A DNA stretch of 63,373 nt, counting the filler, from Archaeoglobus sp. JdFR-37 (GTDB lineage Archaea > Halobacteriota > Archaeoglobi > Archaeoglobales > Archaeoglobaceae): NCBI GenBank assembly GCA_002010215.1. It is 3 parts of 3 records of this genome, joined end to end, with 100 filler letters (N's around TTAATTAATTAA, not from the genome) between each part and the next. Parts side by side here need not be neighbours in the genome. Positions count along the whole stretch, not along the records: positions 48,384 to 63,373 come from MTMY01000005.1; 2 more parts are not named here. One strand, written 5' to 3'. Below the pieces are notes generated by a model. It ran no database searches. It was given only the letters and a program-made list of their open reading frames with translations, and was not told where the DNA came from. The position numbers and the translations under genes are program-made. Of this stretch, positions 3,835 through 63,373 are shown piece after piece. The first letter of the stretch is position 1, and every line of letters starts with the position of its first letter.

Positions 3835-5208
3835 CCTCCCCATCCACATATCTATTGAGAGAATTAGTTTGGCAAACCATGGAAGGGCTGAATAGGTCTC
3901 TGAAGCTCCTGCAGCCCCTAAAGCCGGACCCACGTTGTTTATGGTGGCAGCTACAGCTGAAATTGAGGTTATCATATCTAGACCGGAAATGGAGACGAGG
4001 AAAACCGAAATAACAAAAATGACGATGTAAAGGACGAAGAAAGCTGCCACCTCATCCAGTAGCTCGCTTTTAATAACTTCTCCACCGAATTTTACAACCC
4101 TCGCCCTCCTGGGCTCTGCTGCTTTTTGTATCTGGATGATGGAGTAAATTGTGAGTAGGTACATTCTTCCAGCCTTGATGCCACCAGCAGTTGAACCGCT
4201 ACTCCCGCCAACGAACATGAGAATGAGTAGAACTAGCTTGGCCGAATCATTCCAGGTATCGAAATCGTATGTGGTATAGCCGGTAGTGGTCATGATTGCA
4301 ACAGCCTGAAAGACAGAGTAGCGAATCGACTCAATGATAGATGAATAGGTATCGAGATTCAGGATAGCTAGAACTAGGACTGCCATGGAGAGTATGAAAG
4401 CATAAACCCTGAATTCTGCATCTCTGATTATTCTGAAATTTCCGCGAAGCAGGAAGTAGAGAAGGGCGAAGTTGGCACCTCCGATGAACATGAAGAGTGT
4501 TATTACACTTTCCACGGCGGGATTGTTGTAATAGGATATGCTTTGGGTGTGGGTTGAGAAACCGCCTGTTGAGAGGGTTGTGAAAGCATGGTTGATGGCG
4601 TCATAAAAATCGAGGCCAAGGATGTATAGAAGGGATATTTCAAGAACCGTAAAAACGAAATAGGCAGTATAGAGGAGTATCGCAGTATCTTTTAGCTTCG
4701 GCTTGAGCTTGCTGAGCCTGATGCCGGGTACTTCTGCATGGAGCAGGGGTTCACCCATTTTGGCTATAGCAGGGAATATAGCCACGAAGAGGACGACTAT
4801 ACCCATTCCTCCCAGCCACTGGGTTAAGCTTCTCCACAATAGAATTGATCTCGGTAAATCTTCAACTGTATCAAAAATTGTAGCTCCAGTGGTTGTGAAA
4901 CCCGACATGGCTTCAAAAAAGGCGTCAAGAGGACTTACGCCAATGTACATGTAAGGTAATGCTCCAATTATGGACACGATCAGCCAGCCAAGGCCTACTA
5001 TAGCATAACCTTCCCTGTATTTCACAACTTCGCTCTCAGGTTTCATTATGCTCAAAATTAATCCTACAGTAAAGCTTGTTGCAGCAGCAATCAGGAAAGG
5101 GAGTAAATTTTCACCATAATAGGCGGCAGTTGCTATTGGAACGGAAAATATCAGAGAAAAGTAGATGCATATTCTGCCAAGAAGGTTCAAGACCAGAGGT
5201 ACGTTCAT
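3775..5208 (-). CDS. trkH: Trk potassium uptake membrane protein
   Basis: SGFTTTG, STGGF, TTTGY, GGSSGSTAGGIK and NNVGP pore-loop motifs. Confidence 0.96.
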   Translation of the reverse strand: MNVPLVLNLLGRICIYFSLIFSVPIATAAYYGENLLPFLIAAATSFTVGLILSIMKPESEVVKYREGYAIVGLGWLIVSIIGALPYMYIGVSPLDAFFEAMSGFTTTGATIFDTVEDLPRSILLWRSLTQWLGGMGIVVLFVAIFPAIAKMGEPLLHAEVPGIRLSKLKPKLKDTAILLYTAYFVFTVLEISLLYILGLDFYDAINHAFTTLSTGGFSTHTQSISYYNNPAVESVITLFMFIGGANFALLYFLLRGNFRIIRDAEFRVYAFILSMAVLVLAILNLDTYSSIIESIRYSVFQAVAIMTTTGYTTYDFDTWNDSAKLVLLILMFVGGSSGSTAGGIKAGRMYLLTIYSIIQIQKAAEPRRARVVKFGGEVIKSELLDEVAAFFVLYIVIFVISVFLVSISGLDMITSISAVAATINNVGPALGAAGASETYSALPWFAKLILSIDMWMGRLELFAVISLFIPTFWREKW

Positions 5209-48383: not shown

Positions 48384-48508
48384 TACCTTGGCCTTAAAGG
48401 CAGCATCGTGACGCTTGCGTATATTCCCCACCCTCCATGCCTCCTTCTAGACTCACGCCAGACTCTACATGCACCTTATTGCCCCGTCCAAATTTTGGGG
48501 GTAATTAT
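48384..48508 (-). mobile_element. Left end of an IS3-family element (partial)
   Basis: IR-like TAATTACCCCCAAAATTTGGAC, SD GGAGG, and orfA start VGNIRKRHDAAFKAKV running into the gap; boundary approximate. Confidence 0.7.
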
Positions 48509-48710
48509 AGCCTTCTTTGGCCAGGCCTATCTGCTTGTGAGAGATTCCTCCACTTAAGGGTATGTGATAAGGAATTATTGAGGCTAAGGAATGCATGCAG
48601 ATAGTACAGGACTTCTTGGGATTAATCTTGTATCGCCCTTCTAATATCACACTATCCCCAACCTTATAAACCGGGCAATTGCTTATAATTTCTTTAACAA
48701 TTAAGCCCAT
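48509..48710 (-). pseudogene. TIGR04076-family protein truncated by the IS3 element
   Basis: CPVYKVGD...ICMHSLASIIPY...IGLA, but the C-terminal QCxDP motif is replaced by IS sequence. Confidence 0.7.
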
Positions 48711-49903
48711 AACTCCCTCAGTAAAATATCAACAATCCTTTGCGTAGCCTTACCATCGCCATAGGGATTCATAGCCTTGGACATCTCTTCATAGGATTTT
48801 GGATTCTCTAAAAGCCTCTGTGTTTCTTCAATAATTCTATCCTTATTAGTTCCTACCAATCTCACTGTACCAGCTTCAACGCCTTCTGGCCTTTCTGTGG
48901 TGTCTCTCATAACTAAAACCGGTTTACCCAGAGCTGGAGCCTCTTCTTGGATGCCCCCAGAATCGGTAAGGATAAGGTAAGATTTACTCATAAGATAGAC
49001 AAAAGGTTCATAGTCTAAGGGATCAATCAAAAATAAATTTTTCTGGTTTTTCTTTATTTGGTCTTTTCGGTTTGTTTGGGTGGGACCCAGAATTTCATAA
49101 ACAGGCTTCTGGACGTTTGGGTTAAGGTGAACGGGGTAAACAATAGTGACATTAGGGTTATTTTGTGCTATTTCTCTGAGGGCTAAGCATATATTTTTAA
49201 ACCCCCCTCCAAAGCTTTCTCGTCTGTGCCCCGTGACCAGGATCAGTTTTGAGTTGTTAGTGTTAGTTCCACTATCAGTGGGCAGTGTTAGGTTCCATTT
49301 TTCTCTAAAATATTTATTCAATCCCTTTTGCCTGGCTACTGACTTTTGACTCCTGACAACTGTCAAGAGGGCATCGATCACCGTATTTCCAGTAACCCAT
49401 ATTTTTTCTTCAGGAATGTTCTCTTTTAACAGATTATTCTTCGCCCATTCCGTAGGGGCAAAATGATAATCAGCTAACACTCCGGTTAAATGCCTATTCT
49501 TTTCTTCTGGAAAAGGATTATATTTGTTATACGTTCTTAAACCTGCCTCCACGTGGGCAACAGGAATTTGCATATAGTAAGATGCCAGACTGGCCACAAA
49601 TGAAGTAGTAGTGTCACCTTGAACAATAACCAGGTCTGGCCTCTCCTTTTCCAAAACTTTCTTCAATCTCTGTAAGGATCTTATAGTAACATCGAAAAGA
49701 TCCTGGTTATTAGTCATTATATTTAAATCATAATTTGGGGTAATCTCAAATAGATTTAAAACCTGGTCTAACATCTCCCGATGCTGAGCCGTTACACAGA
49801 TAGTAGCTTTCAGCTTTAAGCTTTCAGCTTTAAGCTTTTGAACAAGTGGTGCAAGCTTTATAGCTTCAGGCCGTGTACCGAATACTATTAGAATCTTACG
49901 CAT
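48701..49903 (-). CDS. wecB: UDP-N-acetylglucosamine 2-epimerase (non-hydrolysing)
   Basis: [26 protein letters not shown] and [11 protein letters not shown] motifs. Confidence 0.97.
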
Positions 49904-50022
49904 TGTTATTCGTTATTTGTTATTCGTTTTTTTCTTGCCGAACAGATAGTTTATGTGTCCATTTAAAATCGTAAAGAGGTTATTTCGCATTCTTTTTCAC
50001 AGATAACTAGTAACTGATAACT
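49904..50022 (-). repeat. Inverted heptamer arrays flanking a probable four-helix-bundle gene remnant
   Basis: Coding strand AGTTATC AGTTACT AGTTATC ... AACGAAT AACAAAT AACGAAT AACA; core frame 49990-49913 MRNNLFTILNGHINYLFGKKKTNNK*. Confidence 0.6.
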
Positions 50023-51061
50023 ATTCCGTTACCTGCTCCCGCACTGCAGAAGAACTCCCAGGTGGAAAGTCGGCACTTTTTTCAATATTTTCCCAATTAT
50101 CTTTAAACCACTGAATGGTATTTCTTAAACCTTGCTCAAAAGGCGTCTTCGGCTCATAACCCAAAAGCTCCCTTGCTCTATCCACAGATGCCAAAAGACG
50201 ACTCTTGGTATCCCATTTTCGCTTACTAACCATTCTTATCCCCGCTTTATTTCCAACAAGCTCATTAATCATATTCGCCAGATCTCCGATCTTGGTTTCA
50301 TGCTCTGATGCCAGGTTCATCTCTTTACCTATTGCATTTTCAAAATATCCTGCACGGAGTAAACCGTCCACCAGATCTTCAACATAAGTAAAATCTCTTG
50401 TTGCTTCAGCGTCCCCCGTTATGGGCAATGGTAATCCTTTCATTGCCCAATAGATGAAGTTTGGAATTACGTTTCGATATTGCCCTGGCACCTCACCAGG
50501 GCCATAAGAATTAAAGAATCTCGTTTTTACCACTGGTAAATCATAATGATGATAAAAGAAGTTGCAGTATAGTTCCCCTAACATTTTTGTGATTTGATAT
50601 GGACTCGAAAGATCCATTGACATAAATTCTTCTTTTAGGGGCAAGGGAGCAGCACTACCATATATAGAACATCCAGATGAAGCATAAATAAATCTTTCTA
50701 CTTTACATAATTTCGAATATTCTAACACCTTCAAGGTGCCAAAGCCGTTTACATGAAGGTCTTTTTCTGGATAGTCAATAGAATTTTGGTTTGCAAAAAA
50801 TGCGGCAAGATGAAAAACATGACTGGGCTCTTCATTAAAGACTCTCTTCAATGAAATATCATCTGTAACGCTCCCCTTAACAAAAAGAATATTATGCCTA
50901 GAAGGAATGTTCCATTCATAAGAAGCTGACATGTTATCGAGAATGATAATAAGCCCCGCATCTAAATCAGATAGTCTTTTACAAAGATTCGAACCTATAG
51001 CACCTGCCCCACCAGTGACGAGAATCGTTTTGCCTTTGTAGAAATCTAAGTATTCTGACAT
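50021..51061 (-). CDS. NAD-dependent epimerase/dehydratase
   Basis: TGGAGAIG and YQITK (YxxxK); SD AGGAGG. Confidence 0.94.
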   Translation of the reverse strand: MSEYLDFYKGKTILVTGGAGAIGSNLCKRLSDLDAGLIIILDNMSASYEWNIPSRHNILFVKGSVTDDISLKRVFNEEPSHVFHLAAFFANQNSIDYPEKDLHVNGFGTLKVLEYSKLCKVERFIYASSGCSIYGSAAPLPLKEEFMSMDLSSPYQITKMLGELYCNFFYHHYDLPVVKTRFFNSYGPGEVPGQYRNVIPNFIYWAMKGLPLPITGDAEATRDFTYVEDLVDGLLRAGYFENAIGKEMNLASEHETKIGDLANMINELVGNKAGIRMVSKRKWDTKSRLLASVDRARELLGYEPKTPFEQGLRNTIQWFKDNWENIEKSADFPPGSSSAVREQVTE

Positions 51062-51075
51062 ATTTCCTCCTTTCT

Positions 51076-51106
51076 TTTTAGTATCAGTTTTCAGTATCAG
51101 TGTCAG
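51076..51106 (-). repeat. 3' arm of hexamer-based inverted repeat
   Basis: Coding strand CTGACA CTGATA CTGAAAA CTGATA CTAAAA. Confidence 0.8.
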
Positions 51107-51476
51107 TTTGCAATAGCTTGTTCCGTAGCCCGTGTAAGATGCGCATTTCTTCATTCAGTAGCCCGGATAATGAATCAATATCCTCATTAGATACATAACC
51201 AAATCTTTGCGCCAATTCCATTTGAGTATCAGGTTCACCACAAGATCCCAAAGCTATCGAAATAAATTGCCTAAACTCGTTTTTTGAATTCCGAAGTTGA
51301 CTTTCAGCTAAATTCGAAGGAATTGAAACTGCAGAACGCCGCATTTGAGAGGTCAAACCATAAACTTCTTCCTTTGGGAATCCTTTTGTAATCTTATAAA
51401 TCAGTTCGCATATCTCCATACCTTTTTGCCAGGCTATTAAATCCCTATATCCTTTACTTTTCTCTTTATCTCCCAT
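51084..51476 (-). CDS. Four helix bundle protein (23S rRNA intervening-sequence protein / Avd-like family)
   Basis: YRDLIAWQKG, FPKEEVYGLTSQMRRSAVSIPSNLAE and FISIALGS signatures. Confidence 0.95.
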   Translation of the reverse strand: MGDKEKSKGYRDLIAWQKGMEICELIYKITKGFPKEEVYGLTSQMRRSAVSIPSNLAESQLRNSKNEFRQFISIALGSCGEPDTQMELAQRFGYVSNEDIDSLSGLLNEEMRILHGLRNKLLQTDTDTEN

Positions 51477-51515
51477 TTCTATTTTCCTTTCCGACAGTCC
51501 GTCTGTTCTCTAACC

Positions 51516-51546
51516 CTAACACTGATACTATCTACTGACACTGACA
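51516..51546 (-). repeat. 5' arm of hexamer-based inverted repeat
   Basis: Coding strand TGTCAG TGTCAG TAGATAG TATCAG TGTTAG, starting right after the upstream stop codon. Confidence 0.8.
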
Positions 51547-52467
51547 CTATCTGTTATAAACCTTCTTCATCCACTCAATATACCTCGGTATTCCCTCTTC
51601 AATAGGCACCTTAGGATCATGTTTTAAATCCCTTCTTGCCTTCGAAAAATCTACCTTTTTTACCTTGGTAGTAAATGGTTCAGCTTCTTTATAGGTCACC
51701 AATTTATCACTTTTACCAAGATATTTTAAAATCAGATCAGATATGTACTTAATGTCTGTTATCCATTCTTCCCTGCCACCGATATTATAAACTTCACCAG
51801 GGATAAAATTATCCACAATATTGGCAAGCGTTCGACATGTATCCTCAACATAGTCAAATATACGTTTGTGACCCATATAAACCGTATAGGGCATATCCAT
51901 AAGGGCACGGTAGACAAAAATCGGAATGACCCCTCTATAAGAACTATAATATTCATGGGGCCCATAGCAATTTAGAGGCCGAACCCGCACAGTTTCCGTG
52001 CCAAACATCTCCGCAGAGTTTAACACCTGCAATTCTCCGGCCCATTTAGATATGGCATAATCATTCATTTGCTTGATAGAAATCTTATCCATGACATCTT
52101 CACTCATGACACCATCATAATCACCATAGACTTCGCAGCTACTGAAGAATATCTGTCGGAATCGATATTTCTCCTGAAGCCTCAGGATGTTTTTCGTTCC
52201 TATAACATTGGTTCTCCACAGATTCTCATAATGGTCTTCCCCATTCCATCTGCCATACTCTGCTGCCAGATGATATACATAGTCAAAGGAATGTTTTTCA
52301 AATATCCTTTCCATTTGCCAGTAACTTGCCACATCTGCCCTTATATGGATATCTTCTTCACCATGAAGAATGTCACAAGTTATAACTTCATGCCCCCTTG
52401 ACCTTAATTCAGCCACAAGATTTGTTCCTATAAATCCTTTACCACCAGTAACAAGAATTTTAGCCAT
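51547..52467 (-). CDS. NAD-dependent epimerase/dehydratase
   Basis: TGGKGFIG and YAISK; SD GGAGG. Confidence 0.94.
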   Translation of the reverse strand: MAKILVTGGKGFIGTNLVAELRSRGHEVITCDILHGEEDIHIRADVASYWQMERIFEKHSFDYVYHLAAEYGRWNGEDHYENLWRTNVIGTKNILRLQEKYRFRQIFFSSCEVYGDYDGVMSEDVMDKISIKQMNDYAISKWAGELQVLNSAEMFGTETVRVRPLNCYGPHEYYSSYRGVIPIFVYRALMDMPYTVYMGHKRIFDYVEDTCRTLANIVDNFIPGEVYNIGGREEWITDIKYISDLILKYLGKSDKLVTYKEAEPFTTKVKKVDFSKARRDLKHDPKVPIEEGIPRYIEWMKKVYNR

Positions 52468-52503
52468 ATTCTCCTCCGATTTAGCTTTTTCAACTAATTT
52501 GCC

Positions 52504-52534
52504 ATGCCCCGCCCGCCAAGACCGAGCGGGGCAC
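52504..52534 (-). repeat. GC-rich hairpin (REP/MITE-like)
   Basis: GTGCCCCGCTCG-GTCTTGG-CGGGCGGGGCAT, a 12-bp stem including G:U pairs. Confidence 0.6.
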
Positions 52535-52810
52535 CCTCGATGGATGAAAATAGGTATAATGCGACATCAATCTCTTATCTCCGGGATTAAGAGGTCGCGT
52601 ATCTGTTGGTGCTGCAAAGCCCGCAACTAGTTCGACCCGGGCATCCTCAAGGCACCCTAGATTGTTGCCATAGAGCACGATAAATAAACTCTTCCCACAA
52701 AAGGACGCCCCCTCTCGGAGATAACACACGGCCCAAACCTATTTTCTAAGTAATAATCAATAACTGTCACTATTTTCTAACACTGTCAAACTGAGACTCT
52801 TTCCCTGTCA

Positions 52811-54034
52811 CTACCTCGATCTCATAACCTCATAAAAAAGCTGTTCGTATTTTGGAATCTGAACCTCCGGCGCTAAATGCTGAAAATAATATTTCCTTCC
52901 CGCCGATCCCATAGCTTCTCTTTCTTTTGGAGACATAGCATAAAGTTTTCGTACAACACGAGCAAAGTCAACTGGGTCCATTGAACGCACTGCCAGACCC
53001 GCTCCAGCCCTAACAACTAAATCCGCTGCATCCCCATTTACCGATACAATTATTGGTTTTCCGCTTAATAGGCAGGATTGGGTCTTACCAGGCACAGTAA
53101 TCTCAAATAATGGATCATCAGTAAGATGAACCATCACAGCATCTACTAACGCATAGAAAGACGGCATCATTTCCATAGGCTGACGTGGTAAAAATTTTAC
53201 ATTTTTTAATTTTCTTTCCTTTGCCATTTTTTCCAATCTATCACGATCTATTCCACTACCCATCAACACAAACTGCAATTTTTTAATGTCGGTTAACAAT
53301 GATGCCGCTTCAATTACATTATGAAGTCCTTGGGCCGGTCCCATATTTCCAGAATAAAGTATATTAAAATAACCCTTAAGATTCCACTTTTCAGCGAGAG
53401 ATGGATCAGGATCAGGTAATGTAAATTCTCCTTCATATGCCCAATTATAAAAAATGTGAATTTTTTCACTTGAAACACCTTTCGCTTCCAAATTTCTTTT
53501 AAATCCTGCTGATATTACTGTAATGGCAGAAGCCTTTTTATATGTAAACATAGCCAATTTAGCTAAAACTTTTAACATTAACTGACTAGATATCATTCCT
53601 GTTGCTGGTAAAGTTTCTGGCCACATATCTTGGATTTCAAAGACAAAAGGTATTTTTCGGGGTAAACTAATGATGCATGCAGGTATTCCCAAAGTTATCG
53701 GAGGGTGATATACCATCATGACATCAACTTCACCACAGAAAAGGGGACCAAATATTGTTGCAGACATGGGAAAACTTAAATAGTTTAGCGATCTTTTAAC
53801 CACTGAATGGCTTCTGTCAGGATATAATGGCAACCTAATTACTTTTACACCATCGATTTCCTCTCGCTGAAAAAGCTTCTGCCGATAACCCGAATATATT
53901 TTCCCTTGGGGGTAATTTGGAAATCCGGTTAAGACTATCACTTCATGGCCACGATTAACCAGACCCTTGGCAAGAATGTGCATCTTGGGGTCGGGTTCGG
54001 GAATATAGTTCTGGGCTAAAATCAAAATCTTCAA
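52811..54034 (-). CDS. Glycosyltransferase family 4 (WbuB-like)
   Basis: QNYIPE, TGFPNYPQG, IQDMWPE and GNMGPAQGL motifs. Confidence 0.92.
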   Translation of the reverse strand: MKILILAQNYIPEPDPKMHILAKGLVNRGHEVIVLTGFPNYPQGKIYSGYRQKLFQREEIDGVKVIRLPLYPDRSHSVVKRSLNYLSFPMSATIFGPLFCGEVDVMMVYHPPITLGIPACIISLPRKIPFVFEIQDMWPETLPATGMISSQLMLKVLAKLAMFTYKKASAITVISAGFKRNLEAKGVSSEKIHIFYNWAYEGEFTLPDPDPSLAEKWNLKGYFNILYSGNMGPAQGLHNVIEAASLLTDIKKLQFVLMGSGIDRDRLEKMAKERKLKNVKFLPRQPMEMMPSFYALVDAVMVHLTDDPLFEITVPGKTQSCLLSGKPIIVSVNGDAADLVVRAGAGLAVRSMDPVDFARVVRKLYAMSPKEREAMGSAGRKYYFQHLAPEVQIPKYEQLFYEVMRSR

Positions 54035-54045
54035 TCTCTTCCCCT

Positions 54046-55206
54046 CTATAAGTCAGAGCCTAATCCTAAAACGCTCCGGTAGAAATCTTTGTGTCTTTGA
54101 GCACATATTTCTAAATCTAATTCTCTTAGAGCTACAATACGTGCCAGCTTCCCAAATTTAGCCCTCAAATCCTCATCTTCGATGAGAATACTTACCTTTT
54201 TAGCAAGCGCCTCAACATCCCTCGGTGGAACTATGAAGCCATTCTCGCCGTCTCTAATAAATCTTTTTACATCTCCAACATCCGTCGAAACTATGGCCTT
54301 TTCCATAGCCATTGCTTCCCAGACAGCCATCGGGCTTGCCTCAGTTTCAGAGGTACATACATAAATATCAATAGCCTTTAGAATTGATGGAATATCGTTA
54401 CGGGCACCCAGAAACAAGATGTTATTAAGCCTATAATACCTAACCAATTCCTTCAACCGTCTCATATACTGTTTTTGGCTATCTAATTCAGGACCCACTA
54501 TATAGAAACTCAAGTTCTCATTTTTCTTCCCCAAAATGTTAGCAACACGAATAAAATCCTCTATTCTTTTTGTTGGATTTATAGTGCCCATAGTCACAAT
54601 CTTTATTTTTTTATCTTTTCCTATTAGTTCATTTCTTACTACGTTTTCAGGGCTCAAATATGCAGTATCCACTGGAGCCTGAATCTCGATAAACTTCTTT
54701 TTTTGTAATCTGTTACCATTGAGATAAAATTGGTAAACTTTACTTCCTGCTACGATAAAACCATTACACAAACCTCCTATCATGTTAAAAATGACTCTCA
54801 GAATCCATGGTAGCTCGGTATCGTTTAAATGCCATACCACCTTTGCACCAGCCATTTTGGCTGCTAAAACACCTTTCATCTGCCATGAGGCGTTGCAATG
54901 AACTAATCGAATCTCCTCTTTTTTAATGTAATTATACAGAGAAAGTACTTCTGGAATGAACAAAATGGCCCAACTAAAAAAATGTGGGGTGTGCCTTGTC
55001 AGTCTATGTAAGCTTAATCTTTGGACACGAACATTCCTTTCAAGTAGCTTATAATAAAAAATTTCCGAATCTTTTCTGGGTATGATGACGACCGTTTCAA
55101 TTCCATATCTTCTTAATCTTTCCGCTACCTGAAGAATCCGGTTTTGTGGGCCACCAAACCTACCATCTAATATTATGTTGGCTACTTTTAAAGAAAGACC
55201 ATCCAT
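54046..55206 (-). CDS. Glycosyltransferase family 4
   Basis: GGPQ and EASPMAVWEAMA (EX7E). Confidence 0.92.
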   Translation of the reverse strand: MDGLSLKVANIILDGRFGGPQNRILQVAERLRRYGIETVVIIPRKDSEIFYYKLLERNVRVQRLSLHRLTRHTPHFFSWAILFIPEVLSLYNYIKKEEIRLVHCNASWQMKGVLAAKMAGAKVVWHLNDTELPWILRVIFNMIGGLCNGFIVAGSKVYQFYLNGNRLQKKKFIEIQAPVDTAYLSPENVVRNELIGKDKKIKIVTMGTINPTKRIEDFIRVANILGKKNENLSFYIVGPELDSQKQYMRRLKELVRYYRLNNILFLGARNDIPSILKAIDIYVCTSETEASPMAVWEAMAMEKAIVSTDVGDVKRFIRDGENGFIVPPRDVEALAKKVSILIEDEDLRAKFGKLARIVALRELDLEICAQRHKDFYRSVLGLGSDL

Positions 55207-56330
55207 TAACGTAATTGTTTTGAAGGCTTAAACATTTTTTGATTAATTATATTTAAGTATAAAGACTGATACTGGTGAGCCATAATATCAATAGACCACC
55301 GTGAAGCAATCTGTTCAGCTAAACGAGCGCGACATAACGCTGATCCTTGGTCAGATAGTGTATATATAAGTGCAGCAGCAATGTCTTCTGGGTTATTTGG
55401 ATTAACAAATACAGCAGTTTCTTCATCTAGAAATTCTCGATGTGCTGGAATGTTTGATACAACCACAGGACATCCACAGGCCATAGCCTCCATGACAGTA
55501 TTTGGACAGCCTTCGTAAAAGCTGACCGAAACAAAAACGTCCGCACTTCGCATCCAGGACCAGATGTCTGATATGTAGCCAGGCAGAAATACACGATTTT
55601 CAATTCCAAGTTCTTTTATAAGAAACTCTGCTTTACGCCAAAGCGGACCCTCACCACACAAGAAAGCGGCAGCTTGGACCTTAGACACAACTTGGCCGAG
55701 TGCCATGATAAGATTTTCGATGTTTTTTTGCTTCTCCAAACGGCCAGCATAAAGGATTATCTTGTGATCGGGAGAAAGTCCTCTTGTTTGCCATTTGAAC
55801 TGAGGCGCAGAAGCCACATCCTCGATCGGGAGAGCATTGGGTATAACGTAAACAGGTACAGTACCATGGATTTGTGATCGCCAGTAATCCGCTCCAGCTG
55901 ACGAATTGGCAACAATCACACTGGCACGGAAAGCAAGTAAGCGGCGCAGATAATTCTTCCACGTTGGCGAATAAGCTGGTGCAGAGTTACGCTCACTCAA
56001 TATCCAAGGTACTTTCGCTAAGCTACAAGTAATTCCGCCTAAGACATTCATCATTGGAAGCCAAGTCTGTACAAGCCCCGGCTGAACCTCACGTATTATT
56101 GAATATAAGCGTGCCATTATAATAGGATCATAGTGGCTACGGCAAGGAATACAGTGGACTTTTACATCATTAGCGATTAAATTTTCCAAGTTTGCGCCTC
56201 CCGATAACAGCGCAACATGCACATCCCAACCATATGTAACTAGCCCCTTGCATAGGTAGGTTAACTGTCGTTCAGTCCCACCCCCACCCATGCTGGCAAT
56301 ACAGTGTAAGATGCGTCTGAGTCTATTCAT
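55206..56330 (-). CDS. Glycosyltransferase family 4
   Basis: GGTERQ, GRLEKQKN and EGCPNTVMEAMA. Confidence 0.92.
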   Translation of the reverse strand: MNRLRRILHCIASMGGGGTERQLTYLCKGLVTYGWDVHVALLSGGANLENLIANDVKVHCIPCRSHYDPIIMARLYSIIREVQPGLVQTWLPMMNVLGGITCSLAKVPWILSERNSAPAYSPTWKNYLRRLLAFRASVIVANSSAGADYWRSQIHGTVPVYVIPNALPIEDVASAPQFKWQTRGLSPDHKIILYAGRLEKQKNIENLIMALGQVVSKVQAAAFLCGEGPLWRKAEFLIKELGIENRVFLPGYISDIWSWMRSADVFVSVSFYEGCPNTVMEAMACGCPVVVSNIPAHREFLDEETAVFVNPNNPEDIAAALIYTLSDQGSALCRARLAEQIASRWSIDIMAHQYQSLYLNIINQKMFKPSKQLR

Positions 56331-56335
56331 GCATA

Positions 56336-58183
56336 CTATGGTTTTGGTGGCGAAATATTTTCTTTTTCGACCCATGCCGCTAGCACTTGCAAGGTCCAAA
56401 AACGAGACCAATTCTGCCCAGAAGTGAATCGTTGTTCCACAGTCCGAATCGCCTCATGATCCAGACCCAAGTCCACTTCTGTTAAGTCTGCTACCCTAAG
56501 ACCATTTCGGAGCCAGCGATCATAGGGTAATGCAAAACCCTGCTTGGGGCGCTGTGCAACCTTGTTCACGATACTTGACCCCACAGCATCAACCAGCAAA
56601 GGCTTTTGGCGATGGTGAGGATTCACCTTAAGATGGGTCGGCAATGCCACAATTTTTTCGACTAAACGATGGTTGACGAATGACGAGCGTAGCTCTATTG
56701 AGTTTGCCATGCTCATCTGATCCCCGTCCCGCAAAAGCGTATTCCGTAAATAATGTGTAAGTTCTAAACGTGATAACTTACCGAGCGGCGTCGTGCCTCC
56801 CTGGTCACGAATGAACCGCGTTTGAGGTAATCGTTTCTCTCCTCGCAATCGCTCAAGCCCCCTTTGTGAAAAGACTGAATGCTGGGCCAAGTAAGCTGCT
56901 GCTAGTGGCTCATGGGCACCGAGTGTCTGAAAGAGCTTCTCATACTTTGTGTCATGCAAACGGGCCCAGTGTGCAGCCAAGGTTGATAGAAGATAACGCA
57001 ACCAACTAATTGGTAAACTAGCCAGAAAAAGCAGCCAAGGGAAAAGAGTTTTTTGCCAATAGCCTAAGAAAAGTTCGTCTGCACCTTGCCCTGAGATAGC
57101 TACCTTGATGCCAGCCGAGCGAATGGCACGGCACACCAAGTAAGTATTCACCCCGTCAAAACTTGGTTGGTCCATAGCTTGCACGGCCTCAGGCACCCAA
57201 CTGTGAGCCTCATTTTCCCCTACCTCAATTTGATGATGACAGGTTTGAAACTGACCAGCTACTAATGAGGACCACCGTTCTTCGCTGAAAGTTTCGTCGA
57301 AACCCTTAAAGATTACGCTGAATGTCTGAAGGTTACAAAATCCCTGCTCGCTTAGTATTGCCACATTAGACGACGAATCGATCCCGCCAGACAGTAAAAC
57401 AGCCACTGGCACATCGGAAACCATACAAAAGCTGCAAGACTGCCGCAAAAGCATGCCGACCGTTTCTAACGCTTCTCCACGTGTGACAGGCACCCTCTCC
57501 TCCGGTATATCGCGCAGAGACCAGTAAGCTCGTGCTACAATCTGTCCCTTATGTAACCGTAACCAATGTCCAGCTTCCACTGCTCGAACATCTTTAATCA
57601 AGGTGAAAGGGTCGGCCACACTACCGAATGTCAAATAAGCATCCAATCCGTCAGAATCCATACGTCTTTCAACAACACCAGATGCCAAAAGTGAACGAAC
57701 CTCTGAAGCAAAAAGAAATCGGCCATTTTGAACCGTGTAGTATAAAGGCTTCTCACCCATTCTATCCCTGGCTAGCCAGAGAGAGTGATTCCTTCGGTCC
57801 CACAGCGCAAATGCAAACATACCGCATAAGCGATCCAATGCCCCGACCCCCCATCTGTGCCAGGCATAGAGGAGAACTTCAGTATCTGAGTTGCTGCGAA
57901 ACGTATATCCATAACCTTCTAATTCAGCCCGCAGTTCGCGGAAATTGTAAATTTCACCATTGAAGGTAATTACTAATTGATTATCGGCAGCAGACATCGG
58001 CTGGTGACCCGCCGGGCTTAAGTCCAAGACAGATAGACGACGATGACCAAGCCATATCACACCTTCCGGGAGTCTATCTTCCCAAACGCCTTCGCCATCA
58101 GGCCCCCGGTGCTTAAGGGCATCTAACATGGCGGCACGGTTAATACCCGTTGGATCACCAAGAAAACCACATATTCCACACAT
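56336..58183 (-). CDS. asnB: Asparagine synthase (glutamine-hydrolysing)-like amidotransferase, probably modifying a glycan
   Basis: MCGI, HRGPD, NGEIYN, LSGGIDSS and SGQGADE motifs; embedded among glycosyltransferases. Confidence 0.93.
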   Translation of the reverse strand: MCGICGFLGDPTGINRAAMLDALKHRGPDGEGVWEDRLPEGVIWLGHRRLSVLDLSPAGHQPMSAADNQLVITFNGEIYNFRELRAELEGYGYTFRSNSDTEVLLYAWHRWGVGALDRLCGMFAFALWDRRNHSLWLARDRMGEKPLYYTVQNGRFLFASEVRSLLASGVVERRMDSDGLDAYLTFGSVADPFTLIKDVRAVEAGHWLRLHKGQIVARAYWSLRDIPEERVPVTRGEALETVGMLLRQSCSFCMVSDVPVAVLLSGGIDSSSNVAILSEQGFCNLQTFSVIFKGFDETFSEERWSSLVAGQFQTCHHQIEVGENEAHSWVPEAVQAMDQPSFDGVNTYLVCRAIRSAGIKVAISGQGADELFLGYWQKTLFPWLLFLASLPISWLRYLLSTLAAHWARLHDTKYEKLFQTLGAHEPLAAAYLAQHSVFSQRGLERLRGEKRLPQTRFIRDQGGTTPLGKLSRLELTHYLRNTLLRDGDQMSMANSIELRSSFVNHRLVEKIVALPTHLKVNPHHRQKPLLVDAVGSSIVNKVAQRPKQGFALPYDRWLRNGLRVADLTEVDLGLDHEAIRTVEQRFTSGQNWSRFWTLQVLAAWVEKENISPPKP

Positions 58184-58212
58184 GAAAATAATCTATTAAT
58201 TGGGAATGACTG

Positions 58213-59253
58213 CTATTTATCGCCGTTTTGCAACGTCCGTTTGAACTTCGCTGAGCTAAAGAATCGGGCACGCGTTATCCTATAACGAAGGCATCGTGCG
58301 CCAGCCAACAGCACACGATGAAGCAAGCCTAATCCAAGAATGGTCCACCCTTTAAGCGAAACTGGATTCATTGAGAGATACCTTAGCATATAGTAGACTC
58401 CTGCCTTACGTTGGCCCGCAACAAAATGCCACAGACCTGCTGTCCTTATGATTACTGCGAACAGGTTAGGAGCGTGCCGTGCAATTGCCTGACCATGTTT
58501 CCGTAATATTTCTTCTGCCTGCCACGCCCAATCAGCAGCGTAACGGAGTAAAACTTTTACATCTTTGAAAGCCTTAGTGCGGGACTCGGTGTTGTCTGCA
58601 TCCGAATACTCAATTGCTATTATATCCGGATCAATCCTTTGTTTAGTGCATTTTGCAAGATCCAGTTGAAATATCGCATCACCTTTTCTTCGGTGTGCAG
58701 GCCACGAGACACAAACATCATAAAGTTCCCTTCTATAGCAACAGAGAAAATCAGTACCGCCTTCTTGATCAACCCATTTAATCCGTCCAACATAATCTAT
58801 AATGCCTTCCGGCACGAATGAGGGGGTGATTTTTCCTGTATCCCAAATATAACGAGACCCAATTACACCAACGTCCTCCGGAGCATCATAAGTTCTCGCG
58901 TATAAGTTCTCTAATGCTCCTGGAATCAAAGCGTGATCACTATCCAAAGTAATAATCCATTTACCGATCGCATTGCGAACGCCAGTATCACGAGCAGCAC
59001 AGAGCCCCTGGTTGCTCTTATGGCAAATAAGTTTAAACCGACTATCTGTTACGGTTTTTAGAATCTCCTTAGTTCCATCGGTTGAACCATCGTCAACGAC
59101 AACGACTTCAAAATCATCAAAGGATTGCTTAAGACAACTTTCTACACAGCGCATTATCATGTTCGCCCGGTTGTATACTGAGATGACAATACTAAACCAC
59201 GGAGAGGAATTGCCCTTTTTTACAAAAGCCTGTAATTCTCCTTTGTTTTGCAT
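58213..59253 (-). CDS. Glycosyltransferase family 2
   Basis: SIVISVYNRA, VVVVDDGSTD and LDSD (DxD). Confidence 0.92.
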   Translation of the reverse strand: MQNKGELQAFVKKGNSSPWFSIVISVYNRANMIMRCVESCLKQSFDDFEVVVVDDGSTDGTKEILKTVTDSRFKLICHKSNQGLCAARDTGVRNAIGKWIITLDSDHALIPGALENLYARTYDAPEDVGVIGSRYIWDTGKITPSFVPEGIIDYVGRIKWVDQEGGTDFLCCYRRELYDVCVSWPAHRRKGDAIFQLDLAKCTKQRIDPDIIAIEYSDADNTESRTKAFKDVKVLLRYAADWAWQAEEILRKHGQAIARHAPNLFAVIIRTAGLWHFVAGQRKAGVYYMLRYLSMNPVSLKGWTILGLGLLHRVLLAGARCLRYRITRARFFSSAKFKRTLQNGDK

Positions 59254-59442
59254 CTTTTCCTCTCCACCTTTTTTGAAATTGTACTGTGTACCGTCCCCCA
59301 TTTTGAAACACTTTTTAGCACGCCTGCGCCCTTAAGGAATACCAAGCGTAAAAACTGTTGAGATACTCCCTAGAACTCATATAACCCAAAGGCTGCATAT
59401 TTTTATGAAACCGGCCACCCCAGTCGTCACGAGTGTGTGCTA

Positions 59443-60518
59443 GAGTTCGTTGAAATTTAGGGGTGGCTCCTCCTAGAATAGGTCGACCTATTGTAAAGAC
59501 TATCAAAAGGAGGAGCCACTGATGGTGGAGAAGGTATCATGGATAGGCGGCAAAGGGAAGAGGACGAAGCGGGTTTTGAGGATACAATTTGAGGAGTTGG
59601 ATGTGAGGGTGGCATTGATTCAGGCGTTGATTCCCATAGGGTTAGAGGCAGTGGCGGAGGAGCTTCAAAGGGAGGTAGCGGCTTGCAGGGCCAAGGTATA
59701 GTCGCCATGGGGGGGATTGGATGGGCACTATCGATGGGGAGCGGAGCGACGTTCCATCCATCTATTTTGCTGACCAGAAAATGGCGATTCAGGTGCCTCG
59801 TGTGAGGGACTGTGTTGGGAACAGGGAGGTTTTATTGGGGACGTATGAGCTGTTGAGTAGTCCCAGGGCAGTGGATGAGGAGCTTTTGAGGAGGATCTTG
59901 CTGGGCATTTCATGTCGGGATTATGAGCGTTGTTGCAGGTTGGTGCCTGAGGCGTTTGGTTTGTCTCCCTCTACGATCTCGCGCAGGTTCATTCAGGTCA
60001 GCTCTCGCAAGCTCAAGGAGCTGATGGAGCGGGACTTATCTGTGTATGACATTTCGGTTTTGTTCATAGATGGGAAGAGCTTTGCCGAGGACGAGATGAT
60101 CATTGCTTTAGAGGTGACCTCAGAGGGCAAGAAGGTGCCATTGGCTTTTATCCCGGCTGCCACGGAGAACGCCACTGTGGTAAAGGACTTCCTTTGGGGA
60201 CTGATTGAGCGTGGGTTGAAGATTGATAGGGGAATCCTCTGCGTGATCGACGGCGCCAAGGATCTTGTAGCCGGCATCAAGAAGGTCTTCTCCGACAGGT
60301 CGCTGATCCAGCGGTCAGTGGCACAAGCGGGAAAATGTGCTTGGCTATTTGCCCAAAGTGATTCGCCCCAGCTGGCGCAGGAGGCTTCAGAGGGCGCCTA
60401 TGAGAAGCCCACTTATGAGGGGAACCAAGGCGGCCTTGATGCGTCTTAAGGCTGAGCTTAGGCTGGTGAATGAATCGGCCGCAGCAAGCCTTCAGAAGGG
60501 GCTGGAGGAGACGCTCAC
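59443..60518 (+). mobile_element. IS256-family element, 5' part; frameshifted transposase pseudogene interrupted by IS481
   Basis: End GAGTTCGTTGAAATT; ATG 59522; QVPRVRD, GISCRDY, LFIDGK, VIDGAKDL and EETLT blocks; frameshifts near 59680 and 60315. Confidence 0.88.
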
Positions 60519-60519
60519 C

Positions 60520-61767
60520 TGGGCTGGCTACGATCAAATCTGACACTGGGTTAAGCCCAGGGGGTTTTCACTGGTGGTAGTCACGGCTATCCTTTCTGGG
60601 GTTAGAGCCAGACAAGGAACCGGAAAGGAGGAAGCCATGACTACCGAGGAGAAGCTTATCAGAAACAAGTTGGGACTCCTAGAGTTGGCTGCATATTTGA
60701 AGAACGTCTCGGAGGCCTGTCGGGTGATGGGCTACAGCCGAGACACGTTTTATCGGGTCAAGAGGGCCTACGAGGAAGGGGGTCTTGAGGCGCTCAAGGA
60801 GAAGAGCCGCCGGGTGCCGAACATCAAGAATCGGGTGTCTGAGCATGTGGAGAGGGCTGTTGTGGAGTTGGCCTATGAGGACCCCTCCTTAGGTCAGAGG
60901 CGTGTGAGCGACGAACTAAGGAGAAGGGGGCTGTTCATCTCGCCTGCTGGGGTGCGCTGTGTGTGGTTGAGGCACAATCTGGAGACCTTTAAAAAGCGCC
61001 TCAAAGCCTTGGAGGAGCGTGTGGCCAAAACCGGCGAGGTGCTCACCGAGGCTCAGCTTCGGGCCATGGAGAAGGCCAAGGAAGAGAAGATGGCCTGGGG
61101 GGAGATCGAGACCGAGTCCCGCCGGGGCGGGATGGGCTATCTTGGGGCTCAGGACACCTTCTACGTTGGCACCCTTAAAGGGGTGGGAAGGATTTATCAG
61201 CAGACCTTCATCGACACGTATTCTTCGGTGGCCTTTGCCAAGCTCTACACCACCAAGCACCCCATCAACGCCGCAGATCTGCTCAACGACCGGGTGATTC
61301 CGTTTTTCGACGAGCATGGAGTGCCCCTCCTGCGGATTCTGACGGATCGGGGGACGGAGTTCTGCGGCAGGGCGGATCGGCACGACTATGAGCTCTTTTT
61401 GGCCCTCAACGACATCGAGCACACCAAGACCAAGGCGAAAAATCCGCAGACCAACGGCATCTGTGAGAGGTTTCAGAAGACTGTGCCGGATGAGTTCTAT
61501 CGCATTGCCTTTCGGCGGAAGATCTACCTGAGTGTTGAGGAACTGCAGCAGGACCTGGATGCCTGGTTGGAGAGGTACAACACCCAAAGGCCCCACCAGG
61601 GGAAACGTTGCCAAGGGCGCACCCCCATGGAGACGTTCTTGGATAATCTGCCCTTGGCAAAAGAGAAGACATGGAGTATTAAGGATGAGATCCCTCTGAC
61701 AGCTTCAACTTGATCATACACCCAACCTCAGAAAGGATAGCTGTCAGATCGGATCGGAGCAAGCACA
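60520..61767 (+). mobile_element. IS481-family insertion sequence
   Basis: 26-bp terminal IRs (21/26 identical) TGGGCTGGCTACGATCAAATCTGACA / TGTCAGATCGGATCGGAGCAAGCACA; GCTCAC repeat at 60513-60518 and 61768-61773. Confidence 0.92.
60637..61713 (+). CDS. IS481 transposase
   Basis: NVSEACRVMGYSRDTFYR HTH; QDTFYVG, LTDRGTE and PQTNGICERF DDE motifs. Confidence 0.95.
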   Translation: MTTEEKLIRNKLGLLELAAYLKNVSEACRVMGYSRDTFYRVKRAYEEGGLEALKEKSRRVPNIKNRVSEHVERAVVELAYEDPSLGQRRVSDELRRRGLFISPAGVRCVWLRHNLETFKKRLKALEERVAKTGEVLTEAQLRAMEKAKEEKMAWGEIETESRRGGMGYLGAQDTFYVGTLKGVGRIYQQTFIDTYSSVAFAKLYTTKHPINAADLLNDRVIPFFDEHGVPLLRILTDRGTEFCGRADRHDYELFLALNDIEHTKTKAKNPQTNGICERFQKTVPDEFYRIAFRRKIYLSVEELQQDLDAWLERYNTQRPHQGKRCQGRTPMETFLDNLPLAKEKTWSIKDEIPLTAST

Positions 61768-63075
<1,308 letters not shown>

Positions 63076-63133
63076 CTACTATGAATTTTGTGTTATAGAA
63101 CACAAAAATTGAGACTGCTCAATACGACTTTAT

Positions 63134-63373
63134 TGGAGTGAACCCCTGAAGCTGGGCATTTTATGTTAGAGTATCTGGCAGGATCTGGGCCCCAAAGTTG
63201 GGGAGAAAGGATCTTGTCATGAGGAAGCAGAGGCGATTTTCCGTTGAGTTCAAGCGCCAGGTGGTAGAGGAGCTCCTCAGTGGTACTTCTCGTCCTGCGC
63301 AGCTTTGCCGCCGCTATGATATCTCCTCTGGACTTCTGTATCATTGGAAGCGCCAATATATTCGGGGAAGATT
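63134..63373 (+). mobile_element. Left end of an IS3-family element (partial; orfA starts at 63219)
   Basis: TGGAGTGAACCCC...GGGCA IR-like end; MRKQRRFSVEFKRQVVEELLSG...CRRYDISSGLLYHWK HTH. Confidence 0.85.

Follow-up and report, generated by a model that had tools for sequence, protein, structure and literature searches.

A four-helix-bundle gene between complementary repeat arms: a possible swappable cassette at operon junctions

Results

The locus and its host contig

The window, that is, the whole stretch of DNA that was analysed (63,373 nt, joined from three contigs assigned to Archaeoglobus sp. JdFR-37), carries the locus on contig MTMY01000005.1 (positions 48384-63373; 14,990 nt), whose scanned genes are glycan genes and a transposase. 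All features of the locus are on the minus strand. A four-helix-bundle gene of 130 amino acids (51084..51476; TIGR02436, PF05635) lies between two genes for NAD-dependent epimerases/dehydratases (PF01370), namely epi1 upstream (51547..52467) and epi2 downstream (50021..51061). Two repeat arrays enclose it. The 5′ arm (51516..51546) consists of five TGTCAG-type units with an AG core, and reaches 51510-51551 with two further units. The 3′ arm (51076..51106), recognised from its sequence and fold, consists of five CTGATA-type units and is the reverse complement of the 5′ arm; read on its own strand (51106-51076), it overlaps the last codons of the four-helix gene, including the gene's own TGA stop. 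The Shine-Dalgarno sequence (SD) of the downstream epimerase gene was located by sequence at 51066..51073.

The other two contigs of the window look archaeal by gene content. MTMY01000005.1 is the second most deviant of the 104 JdFR-37 pieces in tetranucleotide make-up, the nearest orthologues of the epimerase (79-84%) come from bacterial genomes, and the four-helix family was found in 0 of 36 relatives of the same taxonomic family. For these reasons we regard it as probably a bacterial contig binned in error or else a recent island. 23S rRNA is absent from the JdFR-37 assembly. Further along the same contig (59721-61713), an integrase-core transposase gene on the plus strand adjoins an ORF (59721-60449) that looks by eye like a broken transposase.

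The four-helix protein

The family assignment made in the first-pass annotation is firm, with 120.6 bits for TIGR02436 (cut-off 24) and 127.2 bits for PF05635 (cut-off 33.8). Helices are predicted at residues 14-30, 35-61, 65-91 and 97-129, and the structure model (pLDDT 94.9) fits XCC0516 (2GSC) with TM scores of 0.84/0.93 and an rmsd of 0.9 Å. The structural kinship with Avd that had been put forward was also borne out by the model (TM 0.74/0.89, rmsd 1.8 Å). The fold is common with Avd (PDB 4DWL, 8UB7), but identity is 9-12%, and at 20 bits the protein stays far below the Avd family cut-off of 80 bits. The solved homologues 2GSC and 2RLD have five chains each, and by analogy with both the JdFR-37 protein likely forms a homopentamer, i.e., a five-part ring.

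We know of no function for PF05635 genes. A structure of this family dates from 2006, and such genes reach 10-16 per genome in several phyla. In the JdFR-37 genome the four-helix gene has a single copy. Within the region of the GxxRxxxSxxxNxxE motif (PMC3936711), R47, S51, N55 and E58 are retained. None of 176 homologues has the changes G59S and L82P. The gene is identical in contigs of two other studies over the parts covered. Since those contigs show no differing letters, the two changes are not sequencing errors; the JdFR-37 copy is likely decaying, judging by its sequence. Glu109 of the protein corresponds to profile column 100 and is situated in helix 4.

Position, pairing and fold of the arms

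The first-pass annotation had put the start of the 5′ arm on the first base past the upstream stop and the end of the 3′ arm just before the next SD. Both placements are correct: 51546 directly follows TAG on the minus strand, and the gap to the SD (51073-51066) is 2 nt. The details of the proposed 31-nt pairing had to be amended in part. A unit-by-unit count returns the 23 Watson–Crick pairs, but with three G·U pairs instead of two and with five mismatches, and the central internal loop is present but is a 3x3 loop closed by U·G, not 4x4. By our segmentation, the 3′ array has five units and the 5′ array seven (the extra ones being GATAG and GGTTAG). The mirrored 6-6-7-6-6 order is not by itself significant for the JdFR-37 copy (unit-shuffle p = 0.235).

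The stem that loops out the gene was recovered as described, both the MFE and the centroid structure closing 24 bp (21 Watson–Crick and three G·U). In a 741-nt context, the paired positions of the arms have pair probabilities of 0.8-0.99 at 37 °C; these fall to mostly 0.7-0.9 when the temperature is set to 60 °C, and to 0.4-0.9 at 70 °C. The downstream SD is predicted to be mostly unpaired (0.7-0.9 at 60 °C). The duplex between the 5′ spacer and the 3′ flank reaches -39.5 kcal/mol, compared with -21.6 +/- 3.5 for shuffles, of which 1 in 1000 was as good. The arms form the longest inverted repeat within 2.6 kb, and the stem of the cassette is stronger on the coding strand than on the opposite one (-33.5 vs -26.5 kcal/mol). 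Taken as a whole, the 481-nt region does not fold notably well (z = -0.96; 18 of 100 shuffles equally good), and Rfam gave no match across 49500-53500. The repeats of the JdFR-37 cassette have mainly period 6, compared with the period 7 typical of homologous loci.

Exchange of inserts at the epimerase junction

We compared 80 loci with the upstream epimerase. The second epimerase is adjacent in 46 of them, more than 1 kb off in 16 and missing from the covered stretch in 18. In 41 of the 46 adjacent pairs the gap between epi1 and epi2 is at most 100 nt, and the junction is empty. The same junction holds an unrelated four-helix gene with different arms in one locus (L046) and a lone repeat array in another (L067).

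Between positions 51555 and 51073, a contig of a close relative (run X8) has a different stretch of 502 letters; outside it, the contig differs from JdFR-37 at 5 of 145 nt at the end of the upstream gene and at 12 of 81 nt at the start of the downstream gene. The matches of this contig bound an exchanged segment of 481 nt (51074..51554, minus strand). The upstream gene contributes its stop codon and its final 8 nt to this segment, which terminates at the downstream SD. Loose contig ends in three more runs (X9, X13 and X14) stop at the same two places and have arms of the GTTAT/AACAAAT type. From 30 letters of the loose ends we infer a second four-helix gene in the swapped insert. A reading of the X8 contig as an empty allele, with a joint that skips the 481 nt, is ruled out by the 502 letters found there.

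The claim that the gene and its arms are a self-contained unit at operon junctions therefore stands: among orthologous loci the unit is present, absent (the 41 of 46 adjacent pairs that are empty) or replaced (the different insert of the close relative).

In two further loci (L057 and L062, at about 3925-4190), the epimerase junction has a gene-less ATCCTG-type array and a CCCTCTCCC palindrome.

Arms at the neighbouring junctions

One junction upstream of the cassette, directly after the stop of a glycosyltransferase gene, there is a gene-less lone array of the first motif type (TGACAG/TGTTAG; 52764..52810, minus strand). It matches the 5′ arm to a degree that 1 of 300 shuffles attained. In run X8, a loose end with the first motif is likewise found at the end of the glycosyltransferase gene. 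Downstream, the epi2-wecB junction has a gene-less pair on the minus strand: a 5′ arm of three AGTTATC-type units at the epi2 stop (50002..50022) and a 3′ arm of three AACGAAT-type units just before the wecB start (49908..49928). These arms pair with each other (6 of 1000 shuffles as good), and their motif type is that of the loose ends in X9, X13 and X14. No four-helix remnants were found in the two neighbouring spacers. The closest homologue of the four-helix protein (68%; locus L083) lies before wecB, i.e., one junction downstream.

Judging from the X8 swap, the gene-less arms and the position of the L083 homologue, three consecutive junctions display gain, decay and exchange at the sequence level.

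A separate feature lies just upstream of epi1, where a G+C-rich hairpin occupies 52504-52550. Run X5 has a 290-nt piece over this hairpin at high depth and with 0 differences, and covers little else, which suggests a repeated element.

Arms across the family

Profile searches gave 263 matches. Full-length matches numbered 218, of which 188 had sufficient flank and 178 remained at <85% identity; 177 had complete windows. These 177 dereplicated loci come from metagenomes and several phyla. A held-out set comprised 67 full-length matches, dereplicated to 62 loci.

The co-variation of the flanks as reverse complements, which the first-pass annotation had anticipated, was clear: 143 of 177 loci exceed the 99th percentile of shifted controls, as do 55 of the 62 held-out loci, so that matched arms occur in 198 of 239 homologues overall. 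The mean flank alignment score over the 177 loci was 45.8 with the own partner and 23.1 with other loci. In the 80 epimerase control loci the maximum score equalled the threshold of 33 and never exceeded it. In 65 of 177 loci, and in 40 of 62 held-out ones, the own partner scored highest among all partners. The JdFR-37 arms, with a score of 35, are barely above the threshold (rank 12 of 177). Arms of different loci match only where the proteins are >60-70% identical, and cassettes within one genome bear different motifs.

Segmentation into units succeeded for 139 of the 143 strong loci and for 53 of 55 held-out ones. The unit is 7 nt long in 99 of the 139 and 8 nt in 28 (7 nt in 39 of the 53 held-out loci). 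Both arms have a modal count of five units (40 and 43 of 139; 12 and 16 of 53 in the held-out set); counts depend on the segmentation and range from 3 to 25, with a median of 6.5 in the small period-6 and period-9 classes. G-rich 5′ arms are seen in 126 of 143 loci. In 87 of 114 loci, at most 20 nt separate the start of the 5′ arm from the upstream stop, and in 60 of 99 the end of the 3′ arm is close to the next start. The median cassette length is 481 nt. By a crude longest-ORF rule, 146 of 166 loci have a co-directional upstream ORF and 126 of 165 a co-directional downstream one, the downstream ORF being convergent in the other 39. Many of the neighbouring genes are non-glycan genes, and many homologous copies contain stops.

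Only 13 of 143 loci have a T run after the 3′ arm, which gives no indication of a terminator role. Across the homologues we found no dispersed near-identical copies save passengers of an insertion sequence; viral contigs yielded one match and the phage collection none.

Nine of the 177 loci score as direct repeats only, and in another 25 neither orientation is above the threshold, many of them with short arms by eye. In locus L312, a direct array of about 340 nt with 8-nt units lies downstream of the gene on the same strand as the upstream array, and no stem results; L121, L172 and L245 also have direct arrays. On a Nostoc plasmid (L357; NC_003276.1), a 3′ array of CCTCTGC heptamers (2350-2410) has no matching 5′ array in 200 nt.

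Residue 100 and the AG core

AG is part of the unit consensus in 104 of 139 loci (66.8 expected), and in 41 of 53 held-out loci (33.6 expected; 99th percentile 40). The core is kept equally in both arms, with A in 447 of 491 units of the 5′ arm and 431 of 494 of the 3′ arm, and G in 464 of 491 and 473 of 494, respectively. Together with the 7-nt period, it persists across phyla as the remaining letters turn over.

When all columns were scanned, the best of 356 tests linked AG to Glu at column 100 (AG in 74 of 79 loci with Glu vs 30 of 60 with other residues). In a pre-specified test on the held-out set, AG accompanied Glu in 28 of 31 loci and other residues in 13 of 22 (p = 0.0096). On the tree, Glu100 changes state 34 times and AG is still tracked (Pagel test, LR 29.3); an independent-pairs test, in which few branches are well supported, gave 4.5 vs 1.1 pairs (median p = 0.375). 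A link between His100 and CG had an LR of 13.7, and the single His in the held-out set goes with AG. The second-ranked column, Lys9 with AG, was not replicated in the held-out set (p = 0.27).

Because five units are the mode, the solved homologues are five-chained and Glu100 tracks AG, the data suggest, by analogy, that one subunit corresponds to one repeat unit.

mRNA stem or recognition of the ends

Selection on mRNA pairing should favour G·U over A·C. The arms have no G·U excess (G·U:A·C 592:666; held-out 182:221), which speaks against the earlier idea that they are shaped mainly by pairing in the mRNA. Pooled over both sets, there are 774 G·U and 887 A·C mismatches (66 vs 95 loci), and a register-free count gave 54 vs 75 loci. 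The controls for this ratio are modest: 13:5 in tRNA stems, 9:7 in a 16S fragment and 137:124 in coding DNA. The equal AG core, the direct-only arrays in 9 of 177 loci and the convergent downstream ORF in 39 of 165 also oppose the view that mRNA pairing is what mainly shapes the arms.

A slight lean towards A·C on the coding strand amounts to wobble on the opposite strand (loci p = 0.027; post hoc and small in effect). Such a lean would be compatible with hairpin formation in the template strand or in cDNA.

Between arms, units resemble one another as closely (0.723) as they do within an arm (0.719). They stand in mirror order in 106 of 138 loci by a loose test and in 54 of 88 by a strict one, the latter above the null (p = 0.0015). 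This weak mirror order points to some real pairing or copying between the arms.

Among 150 other genomes of the host's archaeal phylum, the four-helix gene occurs in nine, all of them among the 48 with an RNase III match, and in 0 of the 102 genomes lacking such a match; the nine carriers fall in two families. The JdFR-37 genome itself has no RNase III match, though MTMY01000005.1 may not belong there. As to a processing switch specific to glycan operons, which had also been considered, the cassettes are not glycan-specific, having many non-glycan neighbours, and nothing points to a host switch.

Discussion

At slightly below even chance, we tentatively favour the following explanation: the insert is a selfish cassette of about 480 nt that can be swapped at an operon junction, with a likely five-part ring that likely recognises the units at both of its ends. 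On the best reading of the sequences, the cassette is related to the rRNA intervening sequence of Coxiella, and the protein likely binds its own arms. Each subunit would read one repeat unit, with Glu at column 100 favouring the AG core. The main constraint would be the recognition of both ends, either as single-stranded DNA or as RNA and its copy, because the core is kept equally on the arms' own strands and there is no G·U bias. It is plausible, by analogy with the rRNA case, that the arms pair in the transcript and are cut by RNase III with no re-joining; the stem and its likely cleavage would be a by-product of the inverted layout. The cassette would be read through from the host promoter, would supply or abut the upstream stop and would leave the next SD free, and its cost to the host would therefore be low. 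The chemistry of movement may be borrowed from the host or from a helper enzyme, since the four-helix protein has no known catalytic domain. Gene-less arms would be the remains of decayed cassettes.

A wider claim, which is possible but on balance unlikely, is that there is a widespread, so far undescribed class of enzyme-less mobile cassettes. In this class a pentameric ring would read a five-unit code at either end, code and protein would co-evolve, and a helper enzyme would move the unit to stop-codon junctions; the S23p rRNA intervening sequence would be one landing site, and the unexplained intergenic heptamer arrays found in many bacteria would be footprints. The helper could possibly be a reverse transcriptase, by analogy with Avd.

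According to a different explanation, unlikely but still a serious one, the insert is an intervening sequence of the mRNA. The arms would have been selected to pair, and either RNase III excision would follow or the stop would be brought beside the SD, no reading of repeats being needed. The high predicted probability of the stem and the mirror order above its null agree with this, as does the cutting of the rRNA version by RNase III (PMC4990558). The same is true of the placement of the arms (5′ arm near the upstream stop in 87 of 114 loci, 3′ arm near the next start in 60 of 99) and of the same-strand upstream ORF in 146 of 166. All nine gene carriers in the host's archaeal phylum are RNase III-positive, as are 48 of its 150 genomes; however, this co-occurrence comes from two families only. 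The G·U count (774 vs 887 A·C, with a modest control) and the direct-only arrays of 9 of 177 loci weigh against selection for pairing, an intergenic insert needs no removal, and the tandem units, the AG core and the residue link are left unexplained.

It is improbable that the cassette is a mere passenger of ordinary recombination between junction arrays, with template switching equalising the arms and shared descent producing the residue link. Such a history would accord with units that are alike between arms as within them (0.723 vs 0.719), with the lack of a strand signature, with the existence of gene-less arrays, and with stops in many copies and the likely decay of the JdFR-37 copy. It does not account for Glu100, which tracks AG despite 34 changes of state on the tree, nor for the survival of the AG core and the 7-nt period across phyla while other letters turn over, and most homologues keep both arms.

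We consider it distinctly improbable that the protein and the arms serve the host as a processing or translation switch that tunes glycan or other operons. The arms do sit at stop codons and ribosome-binding sites, and TAACTGA arrays just upstream of start codons have been proposed as sites of a translational regulator (PMC4679880). Yet the junction is empty in most orthologues and its insert is swapped in close relatives, cassettes of one genome differ from each other in motif, and many neighbours are non-glycan genes. Chance complementarity of two low-complexity stretches can virtually be discarded: the whole-region z of -0.96 and a JdFR-37 score of 35, just over the threshold of 33, would allow it, but 1 of 1000 shuffles pairs as well and the matched arms of 198 of 239 homologues refute it at the family level.

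The selfish cassette that we favour is closest to the ORF-bearing intervening sequences of 23S rRNA. RNase III excision, which the first-pass annotation took as established for the rRNA version, is confirmed for Coxiella: according to PMC4990558, the intervening sequence in helix 45 has a 28-bp stem and heptamer repeats before the S23p ORF, with the RNase III site at the first repeat. ORF-bearing intervening sequences of 23S rRNA are also known from Leptospira, as cited in the same paper. These elements have the same protein family and a similar size (428-444 nt compared with about 480 nt; PMC4990558). Both they and the cassette have terminal inverted repeats that form a stem of 24-28 bp (24 bp in the cassette) and, upstream of the ORF, heptamers in tandem that contain an AG core, and both are patchily distributed, with signs of ORF decay. 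Unlike them, the cassette lies between protein-coding genes (here two epimerases) and is swapped among neighbouring operon junctions, and both of its arms are unit arrays whose letters vary from cassette to cassette. By its sequence, it thus resembles an ORF-bearing intervening sequence in layout and differs from that class in location.

The four-helix family has been reported from cas loci (PMC3936711) and from rRNA inserts of CPR bacteria (10.1101/2024.02.27.582315), and has been described as Avd-like (PMC10053308). Avd itself is reported as a pentameric barrel that binds RNA, flipped bases being inserted between protomers (10.1101/2023.10.23.563531). Avd binds a stem-loop, whereas the candidate ligand of the cassette protein is a tandem array. 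None of the 12 ORFs scanned on MTMY01000005.1 belongs to a reverse transcriptase family.

Cyanobacterial STRR, which we take to be intergenic heptamer arrays, can presumably be likened to the cassette arms. For the intergenic TAACTGA arrays, the published description is of direct repeats without an associated gene or an evident mechanism, and the main text of that report has no mention of four helix, S23 or intervening (PMC4679880). TAACTGA is a rotation of CTGATAA, which is one base longer than the CTGATA unit of the cassette. Like the cassette arms, the TAACTGA arrays have 7-nt tandem units at junctions and stops in all frames, and take a C-rich form before start codons. Genome-wide abundance of the same unit, which would be expected of a TAACTGA- or STRR-type array, was not seen: the patterns tried found no such arrays elsewhere in JdFR-37. 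Twelve-mers of the arms have only two isolated matches elsewhere in JdFR-37, to which the contig, possibly mis-binned, may not belong.

In the literature covered, mostly open papers without supplements, we found no account of these arms outside rRNA. The JdFR-37 locus contributes the strain-level swap with defined ends and the arms at three consecutive junctions, together with the replicated link between a residue and a letter and the replicated absence of an RNA-pairing signature. For each PF05635 protein, the cassette suggests the array that flanks its gene as a candidate ligand, and it points to a residue for mutation. If the explanation that we favour is true, it would link the ORF of rRNA intervening sequences, stand-alone Avd relatives and the intergenic heptamer arrays (PMC4679880). 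If RNase III cuts the stem, operon mRNAs would be split at many junctions.

Insertion sequences and MITEs also have inverted ends whose inward sequence is alike on the two strands, and gene-less derivatives. The cassette differs from an insertion sequence in that it has no transposase and the four-helix gene is alone between the arms. No target-site duplication was seen at the JdFR-37 locus. Words of at least 6 nt are shared by the two ends in 14 of 139 cognate pairs, compared with 4.8% of non-cognate ones, the ends being fuzzy.

One genome (G138, loci L327-L356) has some 36 four-helix genes that are nearly identical and, with arms of their own, lie inside an insertion sequence, presumably IS982-like. 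We rejected these copies as a case of self-mobility, since their carrier has the terminal repeats and the DDE transposase of an insertion sequence. Within it, the four-helix gene and its arms lie between a promoter-like end and the DDE transposase gene, and a T run follows the 3′ arm.
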